A DNA stretch of 14,166 nucleotides from an uncultured Fibrobacterales bacterium (GTDB taxonomy: Bacteria; Fibrobacterota; Fibrobacteria; Fibrobacterales; CAWVXU01), in assembly GCA_963934255.1 (NCBI GenBank), contig CAWVXU010000068.1:1-14166 (forward strand), given 5' to 3'. A program made the translations under genes and the position numbers. Of this stretch, positions 108-12,644 are shown piece by piece (positions within the stretch are counted from its first letter, which is position 1; the number at the start of each line of letters is the position of its first letter). Below the pieces are notes generated by a model that was not told the DNA's origin, made no database searches, and saw only the letters and a program-made list of their open reading frames with translations.

Positions 108-1556
108 TTATTTTATTGTTAATATCTTGCTATAAGTCTGACTGGGTTGGTGAAGACTTTGTACCCTGAGGAAATAGCTGCCTGCCGGGTAATATTTTAA
201 ATCAATTTGACCATTTCCGTCTACTTCTCTGGATAGAACTCGGTTACCTAAAATTGTCGAAATCTCCACGATCATAGCATTCATTTGACCTTGATTGATC
301 ATCAAGATTTTATCGATCAATCGAGCTTGGATTGCTTGTATATCATTAGTTTCGGATAATCCTGATGTAATTTCACATTTACCACTCTCCACCCATTGCC
401 CCCAAAGGTTGGTTTCAGGGCTAAAGCCATTGCACCAGTTTTCAGAATATTTGAGACACTCGTATGCTGTTATCCCGTCACTCGTGACTCGACTTGATTT
501 ACAGGTGTACTCTAATCCATCCCACTCACAAAGTGCTTCAACCCAGTAATCACAATCCGTATTATTCACTATTTGAGAGGATAAGCTCGCTTCTTCAGAA
601 GATGAACTCGGCTGCCACTGAGAAGAGGTTGTCGGCGATGAAACCGCTTGAGATGATATGGCTGTTGAACTCCCACCTTGAATAATATTAGTTTCGACGT
701 TATGTCCTGTCCAAACTTTACTATTAAAATTCTCTTGATTGGTACAATAATAATAATCAGCATCACTTCCAGAATAACTAGACGGCTTGGCCGCTACTCC
801 TAAATCACTTGCAAACTTCTTAAAGAAATTGACTCGGTCATTTTGTGATGTCAAGCTACCACCAGCACCACATTCAATACCACCATTAATTGCATTAGTC
901 ACACCACTATAGGACCCTGCTCGATCGTCACCGCTGGCTGATCCTGTAAAAATAGCATGAGGCGAAGGTCGTGAATCCGTTGCATCCATCCAATACCAAA
1001 TTGCAGCTCTAAATGCCCATGTTGATGTTTTCACTAAGCCTGGTTCGGAAAGAAAAAGGTCTTTGTTATTAGTCATATCCTCAGACGCCTTGCCATAATT
1101 ATGATTCCAGGAAAGTTGCATTGCTCCGCGGCCGTGATAGGATTGTCCGCTAACAGGAGGGAAACCTAAATTTGATGCCGTGTAGTTTGTACAACCATTT
1201 GTACAGCCCACTTCTTCAGTAAAACAAAGACCATAGTTAAAACAATCAGCAGATGGGTTGCTCGTTCCACCACACCATTCACCACCGCCACCAGTTGTTT
1301 CATGGGATGTTTGACCTAAAAAGGCCGCAAGCTCTCGTTTATCGTTGGTCGCATTTCCACTATTAGCAAAATCCGGAAACCAGCTGGCCGCTTCGATAAG
1401 GGCAGCGTGAGTGTATACATTTGATGCGTTACTAGTCCCACAAGATCCGACACTGCGGTTAGGAAACATTGAATTAAATTGAGTAGAAGATATTAAGCCC
1501 TCAATACCTGCAAACGACATAGAGGCTACTAATAGTAACCCAATTAACTTTTTCAT
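108..1556 (-). CDS. Secreted GH19 chitinase with Ser-rich linker, Cys/Trp-rich putative chitin-binding module and T9SS-like C-terminal sorting domain
   Basis: GH19 motifs KRELAAFLGQTSHETTGG (catalytic Glu), YGLCFTEE, YHGRGAMQLSWNHNYG, AFRAAIWYW and TNAINGGIEC. Signal peptide MKKLIGLLLVASMSFA. ATG at 1556 is preferred over TTG at 1562 (AAAGG upstream). Tail is ISTILGNRV...IDLKYYPAGSYFLRV...KILTIK. Confidence 0.92.
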   Translation of the reverse strand: MKKLIGLLLVASMSFAGIEGLISSTQFNSMFPNRSVGSCGTSNASNVYTHAALIEAASWFPDFANSGNATNDKRELAAFLGQTSHETTGGGGEWCGGTSNPSADCFNYGLCFTEEVGCTNGCTNYTASNLGFPPVSGQSYHGRGAMQLSWNHNYGKASEDMTNNKDLFLSEPGLVKTSTWAFRAAIWYWMDATDSRPSPHAIFTGSASGDDRAGSYSGVTNAINGGIECGAGGSLTSQNDRVNFFKKFASDLGVAAKPSSYSGSDADYYYCTNQENFNSKVWTGHNVETNIIQGGSSTAISSQAVSSPTTSSQWQPSSSSEEASLSSQIVNNTDCDYWVEALCEWDGLEYTCKSSRVTSDGITAYECLKYSENWCNGFSPETNLWGQWVESGKCEITSGLSETNDIQAIQARLIDKILMINQGQMNAMIVEISTILGNRVLSREVDGNGQIDLKYYPAGSYFLRVQSLHQPSQTYSKILTIK

Positions 1557-1829
1557 ACTCAACCTTTAGATTATAACTTCACTTCTAAGTATACGGCGCT
1601 TGAAATTACACCTTTGCATAAGATATACTCTTGCTTTGATCTCAAGAAATATTTCGGTGACTATTTTCCCAATACCCGATATTTCAGGCTCTTAGTGGAC
1701 CAAAAAAGGCCCAGAATGATTAAACACTTTTTAAATACTTTTTGGCTATGAACTAAAAATTCACTTGCTTTTCCACCCTCTTCACTCTAAACTTAACCCA
1801 CCATCATTTACTTTCTGACATGAGCTATT

Positions 1830-3764
1830 ATGAAATTACTTTTCAAACTTCTTCCTATTGCCTTGATTTTGTCCCATCTAGCCTTTGCAGCTAGCTATAC
1901 TGTGTCTGATGGGACTTTTACAGATTCACAAGGTCAGACCGCCAAATACCGTATTGGTATTCCAGATAATTACGTCCCAGGTGCCAAAGGCGAAGTATTA
2001 ATCAATCTGCATGGGAATAATACTGGAACTCAAGATGACATGCTAAACATGTGGTATGCTACAACTGAGAGGCGAGCTGATGTCCTCGGATTGATTCCCA
2101 TCGTTATTGCTTCACCTGGTACTCGCAATGATGGTATCACTAGGCAATGGAGTGAAGCCAAGGATCCCCAGATGCTAGATGAACTCCTGCAGTCTCATTT
2201 TCAGAGTAAAATAACCGTTGATTTCAACCGCGTTTTCCTATGGGGTGCCTCTCAAGGTACTTGTTTTATTAATTCATTCCTGTTAGCCAAGTCAGATAAT
2301 TATTTAGGTGGTGCTTTAGGCTATTGTGGATGCTTCAATTATCTGGCTAATGATTTTACACCGAGTCAATCTTTTATGGATAACTATCGCTTCTACATTC
2401 TTTCAACCACAGAGGATTTCCTTTACGATGGTGCCGTTAATGGTTATCAATTTTATCGCTGGACAGCAGGAGTTAAGAATATTCGTGGTGACTTAGATCG
2501 TTCAGGTAATCACTGTACTGCTCCAGAGAGTGCAATTGACTCTGCTTTGGCTTGGATAGTTGGTGACATCAATACCCCTGAGACTCAAGACGAAGTTCAT
2601 TGGCAAAGAATTGCTACGATCGACACAGTAAAAGGCCTCACTATTTCAACTTTAAATAAATTAATTGTCGGTAGCTACAATGGTAACAATGGCAAGGTCA
2701 GTATTTCAGATGACCAAGGTGATTCATGGACTACCGCTCTTGATATAGTTGGTGAAGCCCTGACATCAGTTGTGGCCTCAGATGATGATGGTTTTGCTGT
2801 CCTTACCGGAAGTAACTACTACCGCTATGACAAAAACTACCAGCTAGTTGACCAAGCGACTGAAGATTTTACTTCCTTCCTTCGAGATGGAATGGATAAC
2901 TTATACAAACTCGGCGGAAACTCTAGTATGGAAGTTTCTATTGATAATGGAATCAACTGGACGGCCAGTGGTTTTGGCTCGGCAGAACGAGCAAGTGTGG
3001 GTCAAAACTTTATTGACATGGGAAGTTCTCAAATACTCGCATCAGGTTCATGGAGAAGTTACTCACTCACTAACAAGGCTGGGGCTGATGCAATTATTTC
3101 ACTTCCTACTCAAAACTTAAGCTACTTAAATTTTTCTAAACACGATGGTAAATTATTACTCTATGGTTGGGACTACAATGACAACTGGAAACCTTATGCT
3201 TGGACATCTTCTGATCAAGGAGTAACTTGGACCCCTGTGATTCTTCCTACTGGTTTTGACATTGGCTATTCAGGCTATGGTGTGGGATTCTATCACGATG
3301 GTAGTTTGGTTTACTATGGTAGTAACGAGACGATGCTCAGTTCGGATAATGGTGCGACTTGGACTTCAGAAGTCAACTTAGGCTATCACTCGGACCCATT
3401 CTTCACCAAAGATAAGGATCAGATTGTCTATACATCTAATGGCGTTGGCATCTTTAGAAAACAAACTTGGCTCACCTCTGCTGCACGACCAACTCATACA
3501 GATGGTGATACAAAAACAAGTCTTATCCTCTCACAAAACCTAGACAAAAATCTTGACTATCAACGCTTTGGAAACCTTCTCATCATCAGAAGTGATTCTC
3601 GTGTTGAGATTAACAGCCTCAATCTCAATGGTCAAAGCCAATCACTCTACCAAGGCAACCCACAAGGCAAAGCTTTAGTTGATTTAAGTGATGTACCTCG
3701 TGGTCATTTAATTCAAATTAAAAGTCTCTCTGCTCAAAATTATCAGACACAATTTTTGAGATAA
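1830..3764 (+). CDS. Secreted alpha/beta-hydrolase (esterase-like) fused to an Asp-box/BNR-repeat beta-propeller and a putative C-terminal sorting domain
   Basis: Signal peptide ending AFA; oxyanion motif LINLHG; nucleophile elbow WGASQG (GxSxG); candidate Asp (TTEDF) and His (SGNHC). Four Asp-boxes: SDDQGDSW, SIDNGINW, SSDQGVTW, SSDNGATW. Tail is LNLNGQ...VDLSDVPRGHLIQIK. Confidence 0.75.
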   Translation: MKLLFKLLPIALILSHLAFAASYTVSDGTFTDSQGQTAKYRIGIPDNYVPGAKGEVLINLHGNNTGTQDDMLNMWYATTERRADVLGLIPIVIASPGTRNDGITRQWSEAKDPQMLDELLQSHFQSKITVDFNRVFLWGASQGTCFINSFLLAKSDNYLGGALGYCGCFNYLANDFTPSQSFMDNYRFYILSTTEDFLYDGAVNGYQFYRWTAGVKNIRGDLDRSGNHCTAPESAIDSALAWIVGDINTPETQDEVHWQRIATIDTVKGLTISTLNKLIVGSYNGNNGKVSISDDQGDSWTTALDIVGEALTSVVASDDDGFAVLTGSNYYRYDKNYQLVDQATEDFTSFLRDGMDNLYKLGGNSSMEVSIDNGINWTASGFGSAERASVGQNFIDMGSSQILASGSWRSYSLTNKAGADAIISLPTQNLSYLNFSKHDGKLLLYGWDYNDNWKPYAWTSSDQGVTWTPVILPTGFDIGYSGYGVGFYHDGSLVYYGSNETMLSSDNGATWTSEVNLGYHSDPFFTKDKDQIVYTSNGVGIFRKQTWLTSAARPTHTDGDTKTSLILSQNLDKNLDYQRFGNLLIIRSDSRVEINSLNLNGQSQSLYQGNPQGKALVDLSDVPRGHLIQIKSLSAQNYQTQFLR

Positions 3765-3787: not shown

Positions 3788-4993
3788 TCAAACATGTGAT
3801 TGGGGGTTCCCAATTTTGGCAAAGCCATGTTTGTTTCGTATGACATCTAAGGCTTCTTGGATAGCAATTTGTGAATTGGAACTCGATTGTTCAAATAAAT
3901 CTTCTTGTCCCCCTGAAGACACACAACGAGAAGCGATGGCTTTTAAACTTCGAACAGATACTCGGCGCGAAAGTATTTGAGGAAGGTTGGATTTGACTAG
4001 CGGGCAAAGATCTAAAAACTTATTAGTCATCTTAGGTAGTGGGATATTTTCTTTGTGGCTTTTTTGATCCGCATAAAATACTTCTATCGCTAGATGCTTC
4101 GTCCAATATTTTTGTAGTCGAAGCTCAAATGCCAATTCATCAATCAGATCATTGATGACATCCTCTAGGACTTGTAGATCCTGCAAATCTTGTTCAAATT
4201 CTCGATGGACCTCTACTTTTGAAACTCGAGTATGAGTAGTATCAATCACCTTTTGACCTGAGTCTTTGACTTTACCATAACTTCGTCCTTGGGCCACTAG
4301 CCAGAGAAGCTCACCTTCTTTAGCAAAGTGGTCACGTAAAAACCTCAGAGGAAGCTTTTGAATTTGTCCTAAATTTTTCAATTGATAAGACTTCAACTTT
4401 TCTCTTGCAGTACTGGTAATTCCTAGGACAAGACTCAGTGGGATTTTTTCTAATTCGTGGAGTTCACCTAATGTGAAGTTGAGTGTATTAGGGAAAAAGG
4501 GCGACCCGACCGAACTATAATACCTCGCAAGTAAAACTGCAGCGCCAATTGTCGGTGCAAAAACTACGCGATAATTCAAACGTGGAAAAACTTCAAATAA
4601 CTCCTGGATTTGTGTGGCAAAACCTCGCTCTCCCCCAGGTATCAGTCTTTGCATACCAGAAAGATCTAAGACGAGGTTGCCCTTTTTAATCACCACACAC
4701 CTAGGGGTTAAATTTTCAACTAGCGCTACTATCTGGATCCACAACTTTTGCACACAGTCAGAGTCATAAGCCAAAAACTGAATATTGGGGTGCCGTCTTG
4801 AGGCTCTCCATTCATTGGCTCCACGGTCAAGTCCCATATGACTGGCTTTAGGGCTCAACTGTAGAACCACACTTTTTTGCCCAGCTTGAGCCACGAGTGC
4901 AAAAGCCTTTTTGTATAAACCTGGTTGTTGATGGATATGGGCTTGAACTTCAAACGAGGAAATTGAAAGGGCCGAAAAAAGTGGTTGTACCAT
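3788..4993 (-). CDS. imuB: Catalytically degenerate Y-family (DinB/ImuB-like) DNA polymerase
   Basis: Y-family layout: LSISSFEVQ (for HxDMDAF), GNLVLDLSG (for DEAYLDLT), APT..AA.LA, GI..TAREKLKSYQLKNLGQIQ HhH region, little-finger domain, and C-terminal QEDLF and LDVIRNKHG. Starts 3 nt after the dnaE2 stop. Confidence 0.75.
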   Translation of the reverse strand: MVQPLFSALSISSFEVQAHIHQQPGLYKKAFALVAQAGQKSVVLQLSPKASHMGLDRGANEWRASRRHPNIQFLAYDSDCVQKLWIQIVALVENLTPRCVVIKKGNLVLDLSGMQRLIPGGERGFATQIQELFEVFPRLNYRVVFAPTIGAAVLLARYYSSVGSPFFPNTLNFTLGELHELEKIPLSLVLGITSTAREKLKSYQLKNLGQIQKLPLRFLRDHFAKEGELLWLVAQGRSYGKVKDSGQKVIDTTHTRVSKVEVHREFEQDLQDLQVLEDVINDLIDELAFELRLQKYWTKHLAIEVFYADQKSHKENIPLPKMTNKFLDLCPLVKSNLPQILSRRVSVRSLKAIASRCVSSGGQEDLFEQSSSNSQIAIQEALDVIRNKHGFAKIGNPQSHV

Positions 4994-4996
4994 CCT

Positions 4997-7900
4997 CTAT
5001 GCTCCCTTAGCCAAAGGATAGGCAAGTGCTAAACTACCGAGTACCCCCATTTGATGATTGGCATGAAGAGCTCGTTTCTTCATTTCTACTGAACGTAAGA
5101 AAGAAACTTGACCAGGGTTCCATGCAGCAATCCGAAGTGATTGAACTTCAAAAGTAATCGCCCCATCTTCATAGCGTGGTATCCCCCAAACTTCCATGGG
5201 TGAATTTTCGAGAGTCTGAGTATAACAACGTTCATACACCTTTGGCCATAAAACCAAATCTGCTGTTCCGCTAAGATCTTGCATCGTCACAAATAGCATG
5301 TCAGCTCCACTGCGCTCAACTCGGTGCTTTCTAAATGTCATAGGCGAACCAAACAGCTTCACACTTTGATTGACAAATTCAGATAGATCACTCATCGCCA
5401 CACAATGATCTGCAGCGGGGTGAAGTGCTAGCATTTTCAAGAAATGCCCTGAGGAAATAAATCCCAATATTTCTAATTCTTGATAACACTTATCCGCAAA
5501 AGTTACCTCATCCAAAATAGGGATATTCATAGAGGGTTGTAAATTTAAATGAGTGAGAAAGTCATTATCAACTGAAGATTTAAAGTCAGGTAAATGAGAA
5601 TGGGCGGACTTAAAATAATGCAGCTCCGCCATCAAAGTAGACTGGGACTGAGCAAAACAATCCAAAGCACTCACTCGAATTAAAGCTTGGATTTCTTTGA
5701 CACCCAACATATCGCTTCGCTTTAAAAAGTCAACAAAATGAAGATAGGGACCATGCTTTGAACGTTCTTCTAACATCAGTAAAAGACTCTTAGAACGAAG
5801 ACCCCGTACATGCATCAAACCTACTCGAATCGAACCTTCTCGACCGAGGTATTTATAAACACTCTCTTGCACACAGGGTGGTAGTATCTCTACACCCATG
5901 CGACGAGCCTCATCAACATAAATAGAGGTCCCATAAAAACCATGTTCATTGGAGATCACTGAAGCCATAAACTCTGCGGGATGATGCGCTTTGAGATAGG
6001 CACATTTAAAACTCAGCTGGGCATAACTCATGGAATGACTTTGACAAAACGAAAAGCCTTGAAAGCTGGCAACCCTCTTCCAAAGCTCAGCTGCCTCTAC
6101 TTGAGTAAAGTTTTTATGATGCATACAGCCTAATTGGAATTCACTCGCGGTTTGAGCGTAGTTTTGGGGTTCGCCTTCATGCATAGAGTTCATCATCTTA
6201 CGTACTTTGTCAGCTTGAGCAAAACTCAAACCAGCAATTTCTACACAGAGGCGAATCACATCTTCTTGATATACCACCACATCATGGGTCTCCCCTAAGA
6301 TTGAGGAAAGCGAAGGGTGTAAGAAGCTCCAATCTTTTACGCCACGCTTATACTCTCTATGCCTCTCAACAAAAGTCTGTGTAAAAGCTGCACTAGCAGG
6401 GCGTACTAACGATGAGGTAATTCCAATCTCTTCAAAACTCCTGGCGTCGCACTTCTGGTTGAGTCTCATCTGAGCGGGTGATTCCACATAAAAAACACCG
6501 CGGGACTGGGAGGTGGATAGAATCTCTTGCACGCTCTCGTCGTGATAACATTTTTCCAGATCCCAAACTTCAGGATCATCAATGCCTTGTGCTTGGATAT
6601 CTCGGAGTGCATCTCGAAGTACCGATAAAGACCCATTACCTAAGATATCGAACTTGATGAGACCGAGAAAATCAATCCCATTATGCATATCAATTTGTGT
6701 GATTTTTCGATTCTTGACACCCCCGCTATATTGGCAAGAAACATGTCTCACAATAGGTTCATTCGTGATGAGAATTCCCCCACAATGTTGACCCAAAAAT
6801 CTTGGCCTACCCTCAATCTTAGCGGCAAGATCTAAAATTTTAGTCAAACGAAGGTCACCTCTTTGTTTGTCACGACTAGCATCTTTGGCTTCGCTTTTCC
6901 ACTCCTTCATCAGGCGGGTCACTTGCTCATCTGTATAACCAAATACTTTAGCGACTTCCCTAAAAGCCGACTTCCAACGAAATGTATTGGTCGTGCACAT
7001 CATCGCACAACGATCCTCACCGAAATTTTCAATAATATATTCAAGAACCTCATCACGCTCATCCCAACCAAAGTCTAGATCTGCATCTGGAGGAGAAACT
7101 CGATCCTCATTTAAAAATCGCTCAAAGTAAAGGCCGTAGCGAATCGGATCTAAATCAGATGCTCCGAGGTTGTATAAAGTGATACTATTGGCCGCACTCC
7201 CTCTGAGTACAGAACAATCTTTAGGTCTCCTATAAGACTCTTGAAAATGGTCATTAGCCCAATCTCGAATCTGCTTCACCATCAAGAAATACGATGAGTA
7301 CCCTTTACTCATAATGATAGCAAGCTCGCGTTCTTGGATTTCGAGGGCTTGAGGTCGATTCTTCACAGCAAGGTCACGAACTGAGAGGTCTCGCTCTGGT
7401 ATGAGCGACACTTCACTCGGATAGTTTTGCTCCAAACCTGTCATTGCGCATTGACGTAAATATTGACTATCTGTTAATCCATCAGGGACTGCAATCTTAG
7501 GCATCAACCAAGCACTTGAAGTCCAATCATCAACTACGCTACTAGCTATCACTTGAGACACATCCAAAAGATCCGGTTTTCTTATAAAAATTTCATCTAT
7601 TAAATAGGGTTCCTTAAACCAAGCACCAGCAGGCGCCAAGTCACTCGGATTTAATTGTTCAATAGAGGAGTTTAAATCAATCGCGCGCATCACTTGATGC
7701 TCCTCATAATCCGCAGCGCTCATAAAGAAGTGCGGCTGGCTTGCAACACACTCTATGCCGTACTTCGAGGCTCTGCCCATTAACTCCTTTGAAACTCGAC
7801 GACTCTCCTGAGATTGAGAAATAATTTCGGCATAAATGTCTAAATTGATAAAATCATTTGTTTCAGAATCCAAGCCAAACTTCACATCCAAAACTTTGAC

Positions 7901-8392
7901 AGTACCCTTCAGCTTCATCAAATCATCCAATGTCTGCACACTAGAGGTCATCACCACCAAATCCTTAAGCCGATCTAATCGCTTATCGCCTAAATGCCCG
8001 GCCTGCTCTTGAGTCTGACCTTTATCTTGAACCTCTAGCCACTCAACCCAAAGGGTAGCCATGCTAAAATCTTCATCATCTCGATGATTGAGCATATAAA
8101 GACTCGTAATCTCACAAATATCAGCATAAGCAGCGGCATTTCGAGCTAAAATCGTCATGGAATCAAAAGGGCGATGCTCTTGTACTAAGTGAACTCCTAG
8201 GATCGGCTTGATACTCAGCCGCTGACACTCCTCTAAAAACAAAATCAAACCACCTGTGTGATTGATATCCGTCAAAGCGAGAGTCTCAATACGCATAGCA
8301 TGAGCCCGCTGCACCAAATCACTCGGCGAAGCCAACCCCCTGAGTAAGGAAAAATGGGAGTGCGATCTTAAATAGGTAAATTGAGTGCTCAT
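4997..8392 (-). CDS. dnaE2: DNA polymerase III alpha subunit, error-prone DnaE2/ImuC type
   Basis: PHP start SHSHFSLLRG and ALTD; RGSAANS; LYFERFLN.DR.SPPDADLDF (catalytic Asps); GQHCGG; KFDILG; GVFYVESP; VYQE; F.GFSFCQSH; OB fold LFVTMQDLSG. Operonic with an ImuB-like gene and carries a LexA box. Confidence 0.9.
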   Translation of the reverse strand: MSTQFTYLRSHSHFSLLRGLASPSDLVQRAHAMRIETLALTDINHTGGLILFLEECQRLSIKPILGVHLVQEHRPFDSMTILARNAAAYADICEITSLYMLNHRDDEDFSMATLWVEWLEVQDKGQTQEQAGHLGDKRLDRLKDLVVMTSSVQTLDDLMKLKGTVKVLDVKFGLDSETNDFINLDIYAEIISQSQESRRVSKELMGRASKYGIECVASQPHFFMSAADYEEHQVMRAIDLNSSIEQLNPSDLAPAGAWFKEPYLIDEIFIRKPDLLDVSQVIASSVVDDWTSSAWLMPKIAVPDGLTDSQYLRQCAMTGLEQNYPSEVSLIPERDLSVRDLAVKNRPQALEIQERELAIIMSKGYSSYFLMVKQIRDWANDHFQESYRRPKDCSVLRGSAANSITLYNLGASDLDPIRYGLYFERFLNEDRVSPPDADLDFGWDERDEVLEYIIENFGEDRCAMMCTTNTFRWKSAFREVAKVFGYTDEQVTRLMKEWKSEAKDASRDKQRGDLRLTKILDLAAKIEGRPRFLGQHCGGILITNEPIVRHVSCQYSGGVKNRKITQIDMHNGIDFLGLIKFDILGNGSLSVLRDALRDIQAQGIDDPEVWDLEKCYHDESVQEILSTSQSRGVFYVESPAQMRLNQKCDARSFEEIGITSSLVRPASAAFTQTFVERHREYKRGVKDWSFLHPSLSSILGETHDVVVYQEDVIRLCVEIAGLSFAQADKVRKMMNSMHEGEPQNYAQTASEFQLGCMHHKNFTQVEAAELWKRVASFQGFSFCQSHSMSYAQLSFKCAYLKAHHPAEFMASVISNEHGFYGTSIYVDEARRMGVEILPPCVQESVYKYLGREGSIRVGLMHVRGLRSKSLLLMLEERSKHGPYLHFVDFLKRSDMLGVKEIQALIRVSALDCFAQSQSTLMAELHYFKSAHSHLPDFKSSVDNDFLTHLNLQPSMNIPILDEVTFADKCYQELEILGFISSGHFLKMLALHPAADHCVAMSDLSEFVNQSVKLFGSPMTFRKHRVERSGADMLFVTMQDLSGTADLVLWPKVYERCYTQTLENSPMEVWGIPRYEDGAITFEVQSLRIAAWNPGQVSFLRSVEMKKRALHANHQMGVLGSLALAYPLAKGA

Positions 8393-10841: not shown

Positions 10842-11834
10842 ATGCCAACTGCTAAAGTAAGAGTCAGAGAAATTGAAGCCACCGGACATATCGCACTTCA
10901 GTATTTTCAAGATGTTGCCATTAGTGGGAATGAGCGGCCCAAACCAAGTGATGAGCTCATCGCTAAATGGGAAGCTAGTATTGAACTTCTCTGTAAATTG
11001 ACACAAGCTAAGGTTGGGCGTATCACCCAAATTAGCGAATCTCAGATGAGTACTTTAACCACCTACTTCTCTGAGGACACTCTACCTAAATTTGAATCAG
11101 TTATTCCTCTTGGTCTTGCATCATATAGCGAAACCATCATAGGGACCAACAGCAGTCTTTATATAAAAGATGCTACATCAATTCCTTTGTGGGAAAACAA
11201 TTTTGATCTAAGATCGGGCTACAAGTCTATTATTGGGGTTCCAATAGAATGGCCAAGTCATGAGACTTTTGGAACTTTAGAGTTACTCAGTAACCAGCCA
11301 CTCGAACTCAGTAGAATTCAACAAGCATTAATTGGAGAATTCCAAGTATCCATTTTGGGAGATCTTCGTCAGCTTCATCTCGAATCACAATTGGAGTTTT
11401 TCACAACGATTGACCCATTAACACAAGTATCGACTAGACGAACTATTCAAGACCAACTCGAGTTTGAGTTTATGCGCGCTAGACGGACGCGAAGCCCCTT
11501 TGCAATTGGCTTTATTCACCTTACCAACCTCAAGGATATCAACCGTGATCAAGGCAACCCTGTAGGTGACGCAACACTTGAAGATGTAGCCACAGCAGTT
11601 GTCGAAACATCAAGAGCAACAGATAGTCTAGGCCGGTGGAGCGATGCTCATTTTTTATTAATTTGTCCAGAGACAGGGACTTCAGGTCTTGAGACAATGA
11701 AGTCAAAGCTCAATTCTCAACTTGATGCATTTACGTTTACTGAAAAAGTCGAACCTCAAATTGAAACTCAATGGATCCTCATCGAAGGACAAGACAAATC
11801 AATCGAAGAAATCTTGCATCATTTAAAATTCTAA
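10842..11834 (+). CDS. GAF domain + degenerate GGDEF domain protein
   Basis: GAF part LYIKDA...W..N.D...GYKSIIGVPIEWP..E.FGTL. GGDEF fold DPLTQVSTRR, LKDIN..QG..VGD..L, but the signature reads RWSDAHF. Confidence 0.85.
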   Translation: MPTAKVRVREIEATGHIALQYFQDVAISGNERPKPSDELIAKWEASIELLCKLTQAKVGRITQISESQMSTLTTYFSEDTLPKFESVIPLGLASYSETIIGTNSSLYIKDATSIPLWENNFDLRSGYKSIIGVPIEWPSHETFGTLELLSNQPLELSRIQQALIGEFQVSILGDLRQLHLESQLEFFTTIDPLTQVSTRRTIQDQLEFEFMRARRTRSPFAIGFIHLTNLKDINRDQGNPVGDATLEDVATAVVETSRATDSLGRWSDAHFLLICPETGTSGLETMKSKLNSQLDAFTFTEKVEPQIETQWILIEGQDKSIEEILHHLKF

Positions 11835-11890: not shown

Positions 11891-12049
11891 AACGTTTAAA
11901 CGTTTTTTCAAATTTGCTTTGAGAAAAATTTTCGTGCACAGCACGAAAATGGGAGCTCCTTGCGGGCGGGCTGCGCCCTGGGCTCCATACACTGAGCCGA
12001 GTTTGGATAAAGAGTGTGTGGCGAGGCCTAGCCATGGGAAATGGCTAGG
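11891..12049. repeat. Cluster of palindromes/hairpins downstream of the FISUMP gene
   Basis: AACGTTTAAACGTT (11891-11904, perfect palindrome); TTTTTTCAAA/TTTGAGAAAA (11903-11927, 1 mismatch); ATTTTCGTGC-aca-GCACGAAAAT (11928-11950); GGAGC..GGGCG-ggctg-CGCCC..GCTCC (11952-11986); CCTAGCCAT-gggaa-ATGGCTAGG (12027-12049). Confidence 0.85.
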
Positions 12050-12239
12050 TATCCTTTAGGCACCTAACGGAGCTAACGTAGTCCCCATGGCCGAAGAGGC
12101 GGTAGAAGTAATCATCGCCTGAGTGCAAGCTGCGGTACCATGCGTAACTGCCACTCTTCTCAGAGGAAGACCACCAGAAGCCGTTGTCGCCTAGGTCGTT
12201 GAAGTCACCATCGGAGTTACGGTAGCCACCTGGGAGGCC
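12045..12239 (-). other. Putative DGR variable repeat (VR) at the 3' end of the FISUMP gene
   Basis: Abrupt enrichment of NNC codons: hand count 36/64 versus 27/135 in the rest of the gene. It sits in the C-terminal ligand-binding segment, with a hairpin at the stop codon. No TR or RT in the window. Confidence 0.65.
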
Positions 12240-12644
12240 TGAGAATCCAAATTCATCAGTGCCATTCATTGATCTAGCTTTGAGGGTTTTGCCAAGCTGA
12301 ACGTAACCATATATATCCATAGCTGAAAGACCTGCCTCTCTAGCTACATACTTTGCCAATTGCTCCCACTCATCATCACTAGGCAAATGCCAACCACTTG
12401 GGCACGAACTTTTAGCAGAGGACCAAGTGTAAAGGCGACCGTATTTTTTACAATTACTTGAGTCATTATCATAACACCAAGAATCACTTGTTTCAAAATT
12501 TAAGTTTTCAGCCATCCAGACTTGGGAGCCGATTTGGGTGGTTTTATATTGCTGAGCATCTCTAGAGTCTTTCAATGAATTGATTTTGGACTCTTTACAA
12601 GAGGATAGCATCAAGATGAAAGTGAGTGTAAGGATTTTAAACAT
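12045..12644 (-). CDS. FISUMP (Fibrobacter succinogenes major paralogous) domain lipoprotein
   Basis: Lipobox LSSC; motifs D.RD.QQYKTTQIGSQVWMAENLN, YGRLYTW, CPSGWHLPSDDEW, FGFSGLPGGYR, FWWSSS and SVRCLKD. Confidence 0.93.
   Translation of the reverse strand: MFKILTLTFILMLSSCKESKINSLKDSRDAQQYKTTQIGSQVWMAENLNFETSDSWCYDNDSSNCKKYGRLYTWSSAKSSCPSGWHLPSDDEWEQLAKYVAREAGLSAMDIYGYVQLGKTLKARSMNGTDEFGFSGLPGGYRNSDGDFNDLGDNGFWWSSSEKSGSYAWYRSLHSGDDYFYRLFGHGDYVSSVRCLKDT

Follow-up and report, generated by a model that had tools for sequence, protein, structure and literature searches.

A predicted FISUMP lipoprotein gene with a C-rich 3′ end

In the current study, we characterized a FISUMP gene on the minus strand of a 14,166-nt stretch of DNA (hereafter, the window) from an uncultured member of the Fibrobacterales. 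The genome, G000, is assembled to 2.67 Mb in 138 contigs, is 92% complete and is present in marine metagenome runs. The gene and its surroundings hold the following features:

12045..12644, minus strand: FISUMP target gene encoding a predicted lipoprotein of 199 aa with one FISUMP (Fib_succ_major) domain of predicted C-type-lectin-like fold
12597..12644, minus strand: predicted lipoprotein signal peptide ending in L-S-S-C16, from sequence alone
12051..12578, minus strand: FISUMP domain TIGR02145, residues 23-198 (profile match, E 3.6e-53)
12297..12323, minus strand: further loop that varies among alleles (residues 108-116), lying upstream of the variable region; populations differ in it by small indels, and it is not template-like
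12072..12239, minus strand: variable region (VR), codons 136-191, almost certainly DGR-derived (codon signature, templates and alleles)
12222-12224 (codon 141) to 12072-12074 (codon 191), minus strand: allele-variable codons within the variable region (allele comparison)
12045..12071, minus strand: near-constant 3′ end, SVRCLKDT-stop, at the place expected for an IMH; K197Q is the sole variation among proteins, and a record from metagenome run X6 diverges behind 12072
12027..12049, minus strand: perfect 9-bp hairpin with a 5-nt loop, overlapping the stop codon, without a T-run, at the place of a DGR target-recognition hairpin
11964..11998, minus strand: two short GC-rich hairpins, a REP-like downstream element with extra letters at 11984 in other populations
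11928..11950, minus strand: 10-bp hairpin with a T-run, terminator-like (structure search)

The hydrophobic stretch at the N-terminus, up to L-S-S-C16, is one that we take to fit the lipobox consensus. A profile search also placed PF09603 in the product (E 3e-33), and no sequence match to the protein was found in the PDB. Its structure model (pLDDT 91.3) was most similar to TvpA (2y3c) by VIA-align (Z 10.1, rmsd 3.2, 146 residues aligned), followed by TaqVP (Z 8.7) and Mtd (Z 7.0), with rows less than 1 Z apart counted as ties; Foldseek returned no match at E 0.001 or better, and its weak rows were C-type lectins. According to the model, the C-terminal variable region sits in a C-type-lectin-like (CLec) fold, as in DGR targets, and the match to TvpA bears out the fold that had been proposed from the sequence alone. 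Variable residues alternate on predicted strands 167-173 and 180-186, a pattern that would fit a binding sheet of which one face varies. The loop of residues 108-116 also varies strongly between populations, with indels, though it lies outside the templated region.

The end of the gene is set apart by its composition. From GLPGGYR to the stop codon, 36 of 64 codons end in C, vs. 27 of 135 upstream (Fisher p 5.9e-7), and the GC content is 56.3% in the last 64 codons vs. 39.3% upstream; the counts given in the sequence-only reading (36/64, 27/135 and a GC content of about 56%) proved exact. Given the amino acids and the codon usage of the genome, 13.2 C-ending codons would be expected (z 7.2). 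The excess ranks first among 1840 crude ORFs of at least 150 aa, and windows of the last 64 codons genome-wide contain a median of 10 C-ending codons, with a 99th percentile of 20. Among the two-fold N/D/Y/F/H/C codons, the ratio of C to T endings is 19:5 in the region and 9:23 upstream. Since G-ending codons are not raised (9/64 vs. 22/135), the 3′ end is not a general GC patch.

A hairpin of this kind at the stop codon occurs in 8 of 1828 ORFs, and in 2 of 1828 with a stem GC of at least 50%. By position, the hairpin at 12027-12049 matches the one expected just downstream of the VR of a DGR target. The target of Bordetella BPP-1 needs a hairpin/cruciform downstream of its VR (PMC3240598), and in the window gene, too, the VR is directly followed by a short inverted repeat; unlike that of BPP-1, it overlaps the stop codon, and its role is putative. 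Further downstream, the structured REP-like element (11924-11998; region z -4.5) is present as a single copy in G000, has no Rfam match and carries the extra letters at 11984 in four of the four runs compared; a second flank exists.

Several other genes in the window deserve mention. At 108-1562 (minus strand) lies a GH19 chitinase with a C-terminal extension, and at 1830-3764 (plus strand) the gene for a secreted protein of 644 aa that has no Pfam match; the tails of both give the impression of sorting domains. An IMS-family gene lies beside a DnaE-family polymerase gene (3788-8392, minus strand), resembling an imuB-dnaE2-like mutagenesis pair, and a GGDEF protein, whose signature motif GRWSDAHF looks degenerate, is encoded at 10842-11834 (plus strand), converging on the FISUMP gene.

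Templates of relatives and alleles among populations

Among 40 relatives, the DNA most similar to the variable region was a template in genome G010, where target, accessory gene, TR and RT make up a complete cassette; of 206 bases compared between its TR and VR, 28 differ, and at 27 of these the template has an A. When the comparison covered 296 genomes of the phylum, the TR of G126 ranked first (74% over 116 nt); G010 and G126 both belong to the same order as G000. Alignment of the variable region to the two templates needs no gaps. Both templates have AAC or AAT at 21 codons, where the window has NNY at 21/21 and NNC at 17, and the bases at positions 1-2 of these codons (A20 G10 T9 C3) appear close in spectrum to those of the nine scored G126 targets (A344 G108 T94 C10). 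Like the window gene, the FISUMP DGRs of G010 and G126 have a gap-free colinear VR, the same variable positions and hairpins after the stop codon; their cassettes run in the order target-accessory-TR-RT. They differ in possessing RT and TR, their templates are non-cognate, and G126 has 143 FISUMP matches vs. 5 in G000. Since the cognate template was not found and the closest template among 30 RT loci mismatches the window at 16 of 85 non-A positions, the adenine test on the window is an indirect one.

Alleles provide a second line of evidence. An orthologous protein, P0002 (199 aa, 76% identity), differs from the window at 18 of the 21 shared AAC/AAT-template codons vs. 7 of the 43 others (p 1.1e-7), and overall at 25 of 64 codons in the region vs. 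23 of 135 upstream. Of the 25 replacements in the region, 23 fall at NNY codons; all 25 can be reached with base 3 unchanged, a weak test given that 22 of the 23 upstream replacements can be as well. In run X6, a 30-letter loose end behind 12072 differs at 13 of 20 first or second positions and at 1 of 10 third positions (hand count; p 0.007), the opposite of the third-position pattern that the sequence-only reading had named as counting against it. Judged through non-cognate templates and alleles, the variation appears to sit at template-adenine positions, i.e., codon positions 1-2 of AAC/AAT. The segment is almost certainly a DGR-derived variable region: its proposed descent from an AAC-rich template is borne out by the colinear G010 and G126 templates, by the NNY codons and by the distribution of P0002 replacements.

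Close alleles, by contrast with P0002, are nearly invariant. The three other members of the 90% cluster differ in the tip at 0, 0, and 3 of 64 codons vs. 2, 1, and 6 of 135 upstream, and two of the three tip changes are common to P0002; the cluster is cut at 90% identity, and in a protein of 199 aa an allele that had been strongly rewritten would no longer be included. P0002 was the only further allele among the top 120 of 1065 matches, and neither a further allele nor a shared-scaffold target was found in searches of shorter (15 of 18 candidates) or longer (19 of 127) proteins. One JGI record is identical to the window, possibly from the same source.

The metagenome comparison covered contigs of 4 of 19 listed runs (X1, X2, X5, X6), with the small-share runs X10-X19 left out. 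Main contigs of X1 and X2 differ from the window at 2 of 379 and 4 of 544 letters, with at most one difference each inside the region. A second lineage, marked by P0002-like upstream changes, makes up a minority of X1 and X2; X5 showed this lineage alone, as did the rows listed for the upstream part in X6. Among the matches listed (40 of 116 difference rows), an X2 record differs over the region at 23 of 157 letters and an X1 record at 32 of 275. At least three alleles are known (window, P0002, X6), and those of X6 and P0002 differ at 5 of 10 visible codons. In the contigs compared, with 40 of 116 difference rows listed, window-type alleles appear static and the other lineage has several alleles. 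Contigs of X5 and X6 stop at or inside the variable region; at a depth of 2-8, we give no weight to missing coverage there, but the stops, together with the allele differences, may reflect activity in sister populations.

An alternative flank lies before 11924-11928 in four of four runs and behind 12711 in two of four, and the two alternative-flank motifs are absent from G000. An equal depth of 3.94 suggests that the variant tip of X6 sits on the record with the other flank. Compared with the window, X5 has 38 differing letters of 422 in the gene body and 5 of 548 and 1 of 209 in the flanks; therefore, old divergent alleles lie in near-identical backgrounds. It is possible that a sister population has a live cassette.

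FISUMP genes elsewhere in the genome and the phylum

Two of the five FISUMP matches in G000 carry the codon signature. The second carrier ranks 2 of 1840 in C-ending excess (30/64, z 5.8):

C8:11673-17072 (L029), plus strand: C8 paralog, a 1799-aa secreted repeat protein with a terminal FISUMP domain and a C-rich tip (30/64)

The C8 paralog has no strong hairpin, and the four other members of its cluster differ at 0-1 of 64 codons in the tip vs. 1-18 of 1735 elsewhere. Genes for LpoB-like and FGE-like lipoproteins (weak matches) follow it. The FISUMP genes on C91 and C129 have 13 and 7 C-ending codons of 64, respectively.

Elsewhere in the phylum, 47 of 296 genomes have DGR-like RTs. G126 has 40 matches to its TR besides the 143 to FISUMP; 30 of the 40 were fetched, of which 3 are templates. 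Compared with the template on its contig C64, nine targets differ at 0-3 of ~133 non-A positions and at 19-29 of 62 A positions. Six of these nine lie on contigs without an RT match (0-3 non-A and 20-29 A differences), and the other 18 fetched loci show 5-31 non-A differences. The G126 loci (L115-L144) look like dispersed FISUMP targets with graded decay. Every close target, even the one beside an intact RT on C119, fits the C64 template better than that of C119, and the RT at C64 is in fragments; a template served by an RT in trans is possible, as is a mixture of strains in the bin. Across 116 FISUMP-ending rows at 83 loci (not deduplicated; one without an upstream part), the median C excess was 0.14, 39 rows exceeded 0.2 and one had an RT in its flank. 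From the G126 targets and these rows, it follows that a dispersed FISUMP family exists in the phylum but hardly in G000. The sequence-only reading had envisaged the window gene as possibly one of a dispersed hypervariable family; in G000 such a family is small, with two signature carriers of five matches, but in G126 it is real.

FISUMP genes also form tandem arrays (10 in L049), and many have C-rich tips without a nearby RT (L049, L036, L040-L047 and others); the records with these loci are titled Fibrimonadaceae and Chitinispirillales. In G001, a genome of the same family, the tip of a FISUMP gene (C146:1649-2152, L157) has 26 of 64 codons ending in C vs. a fraction of 0.17 upstream. The assembly of G001, the sole further genome of the family, is 78% complete and yielded no DGR-like RT; an RT match there, on a 554-nt contig, looks LINE-like and was hence not counted.

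A probable cassette scar and the present state of the gene

No RT, TR or accessory gene was found within the window, as had been noted from the sequence alone, nor was an intact one found in the 92% complete assembly. An intact RT was sought in G000 with PF00078, two RT proteins of relatives and a six-frame profile of 30 relatives' RTs, and none was found; two matches in one RT search came from the template part of the query rather than the RT. The accessory (avd-position) gene was likewise not found in G000, either with one protein as query or with profiles of 25 relatives at the protein and DNA levels. A near-copy of 12045-12239 differing at adenines and lying beside a DGR RT, which the earlier proposal had called for, was looked for in the 92% complete G000 and not found: blastn detected no template for the window tip, and an adenine-tolerant ungapped scan gave best non-self scores of 15.0 (self 197.1) for the window tip and 16.3 (self 225.0) for the C8 tip. 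AAC-rich tracts in G000 were rejected as templates, being simple repeats or reverse frames. No cognate TR was found in the 296 genomes of the phylum, and the collections covered included no other genome of the genus. A search with the 3′-end pattern found no template in JGI or viral collections (viral contig scans 0, 0, 0). One JGI match to the pattern was set aside as identical to the window and not independent, possibly from the same source, and a scan with the P0002 pattern gave one partial, unrelated locus.

Another contig of G000, C100, does hold a trace of such machinery. Two of the top four weak matches to the six-frame RT profile (30 relatives) are adjacent there, and a DNA profile of 28 RT genes matched C100:398-290 at E 7.9e-7 (profile positions 804-913, one base missing), vs. 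E 0.37 for the next match in G000 and 0.2 for the best in the reversed genome. Over 43 aa, this piece shares 53% identity with a DGR-type RT that has a motif of the Y-G-R-Y-V-D-D type; the other RT kinds compared matched at E 0.9 or worse, or not at all. Adjacent to it, C100:652-404 is a FISUMP pseudogene with two stops, 50% identical to the C8 paralog and ending at the CPSGWH motif. Together, they form the following feature:

G000 C100:290-652 (L197), minus strand: FISUMP pseudogene with an in-frame, frameshifted 3′ RT fragment, a putative DGR deletion scar

The scar is presumably flanked by an EF-G-like gene on one side and the start of an EF-Tu-like gene on the other. The arrangement on C100 would be the remnant of a cassette that lost its middle (VR, accessory gene, TR and most of the RT) through a deletion; had it arisen by misassembly via the TR/VR repeat, the join would be expected elsewhere, and no stops would have been added. 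Since C100 holds this target-RT scar, the lineage appears once to have had a cassette and lost it. The pseudogene is more similar to the C8 paralog than to the window gene. Given this C8-like target, and given that the tips on C8 and on C68 (window) do not share a scaffold, the scar does not tie the C100 cassette to the window gene.

Taken together, the tip of the window gene is probably a frozen leftover of a DGR variable region rather than a live target of hypermutation. By the known mechanism, a DGR reverse transcriptase would once have copied an AAC/AAT-rich template RNA, misincorporating at adenines, and the cDNA would have replaced codons ~141-191, with the 3′ end and the stop hairpin as guides. 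This would have left the observed footprint of NNC/NNT codons at the predicted ligand-binding strands of the C-type-lectin-like domain. The deletion on C100 would have joined the beginning of a FISUMP target gene to what is left of the RT at its 3′ end, with loss of VR, accessory gene, TR and most of the RT. One variant would then have been fixed, and the gene would now be an ordinary, intact gene for a static predicted binding protein.

An alternative is that an intact cassette, unassembled or unbinned, still rewrites the gene in trans while selection holds one dominant variant in place. TR/VR repeats can fail to assemble, which, in an assembly 92% complete and in 138 contigs, speaks against the frozen reading. 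The hairpin and reading frame are intact, G126 has real remote FISUMP targets (the six loci on contigs without an RT match), DGR-like RTs are found in 47 of the 296 genomes, and the alternative flanks seen both before and behind the gene represent arrangements in the populations that were not assembled. Nevertheless, the tip is nearly invariant among cluster members and in two runs, the JGI record is identical, the C8 paralog is likewise static, a decayed scar is all that the assembly shows of an RT, and the 3′-end pattern retrieved no template from JGI or viral collections. Current diversification in trans, as the sequence-only reading had proposed, is therefore not borne out, with neither a template nor an intact RT, a scar on C100 and close alleles nearly invariant in the tip; we consider it unlikely.

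It is far less probable still that the tip owes nothing to a DGR and is a 3′ patch recombined from a GC-rich FISUMP gene, with ordinary positive selection on its binding residues. C-rich FISUMP ends without a nearby RT are common (the excess is above 0.2 in 39 of 116 rows), residues of binding sites vary under selection anyway, and the alleles differ upstream too (23/135). A patch of this kind does not agree with the flat G-ending codons, with allele differences that avoid third positions (1/10) and match template adenine codons, with the 23 of 25 replacements at NNY codons, or with the presence of hairpin and scar. The polymerase genes at 3788-8392, of the IMS and DnaE families, bring to mind local hypermutation by an error-prone ImuB-like/DnaE2-like pair 3.6 kb away, yet adjoining genes are ~99% identical between runs. 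Translesion mutagenesis is not known to be confined to codon positions 1-2 of a single 170-nt stretch, and we give local hypermutation almost no credence.

A frozen target also agrees with what is described for other bacteria. Isolates of Treponema denticola have DGR targets without RT and TR, explained as genes left behind when a cassette was lost or as genes that were taken up by themselves (PMC4891356). Like the window gene, these are lipoproteins with a VR pattern in genomes without the core components, and TvpA is the best fold match of the window gene; they have an FGE-sulfatase-type domain and a TR known from sister strains (PMC4891356), whereas the window gene has a FISUMP domain and its genome a target-RT fusion scar. 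Fib_succ_major targets fall into category 'd' or CLec2 (DUF1566, DUF823, Fib_succ_major), with Legionella LdtA as type example, and 45 of 372 DGRs have non-adjacent targets (PMC5758913). The window gene shares the Fib_succ_major domain, lipoprotein signal and C-terminal variable region of this category; it differs in having no adjacent cassette and no intact one found in the assembly, and its assignment to CLec2 is by domain name, not VR alignment. FISUMP is annotated in 43 DGR targets (PMC11661182), purifying selection can mask DGR activity (PMC8144416), and activity of DGRs in trans has been examined in Thiohalocapsa (PMC10907252). In the literature searched, most subscription papers and all supplements aside, we found no paper on DGRs in the FISUMP families of this phylum.

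More tentatively, it is conceivable that sister marine populations keep a live DGR, that DGR-less strains acquire finished alleles by recombination, and that the large FISUMP paralog families of the phylum are DGR-written repertoires, with a few members as live remote targets and the rest frozen at graded ages; we regard this broader picture as doubtful, if worth stating. Uptake of alleles is suggested by the comparison of runs, in which the flanks are ~99% identical, the gene body is ~9% different and the tip is rewritten, and graded ages by the 0 to 31 non-A mismatches among the 30 G126 loci fetched.

By itself, the window gene is a clean but ordinary retired DGR target, to which the same genome adds a scar recording the loss of a cassette. 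If FISUMP expansions are indeed products of DGRs, then their ends would be ligand-binding surfaces, and surveys of DGRs that center on cassettes would undercount targets. Writing by DGRs would thereby offer a testable origin for a FISUMP paralog family that has long been unexplained.
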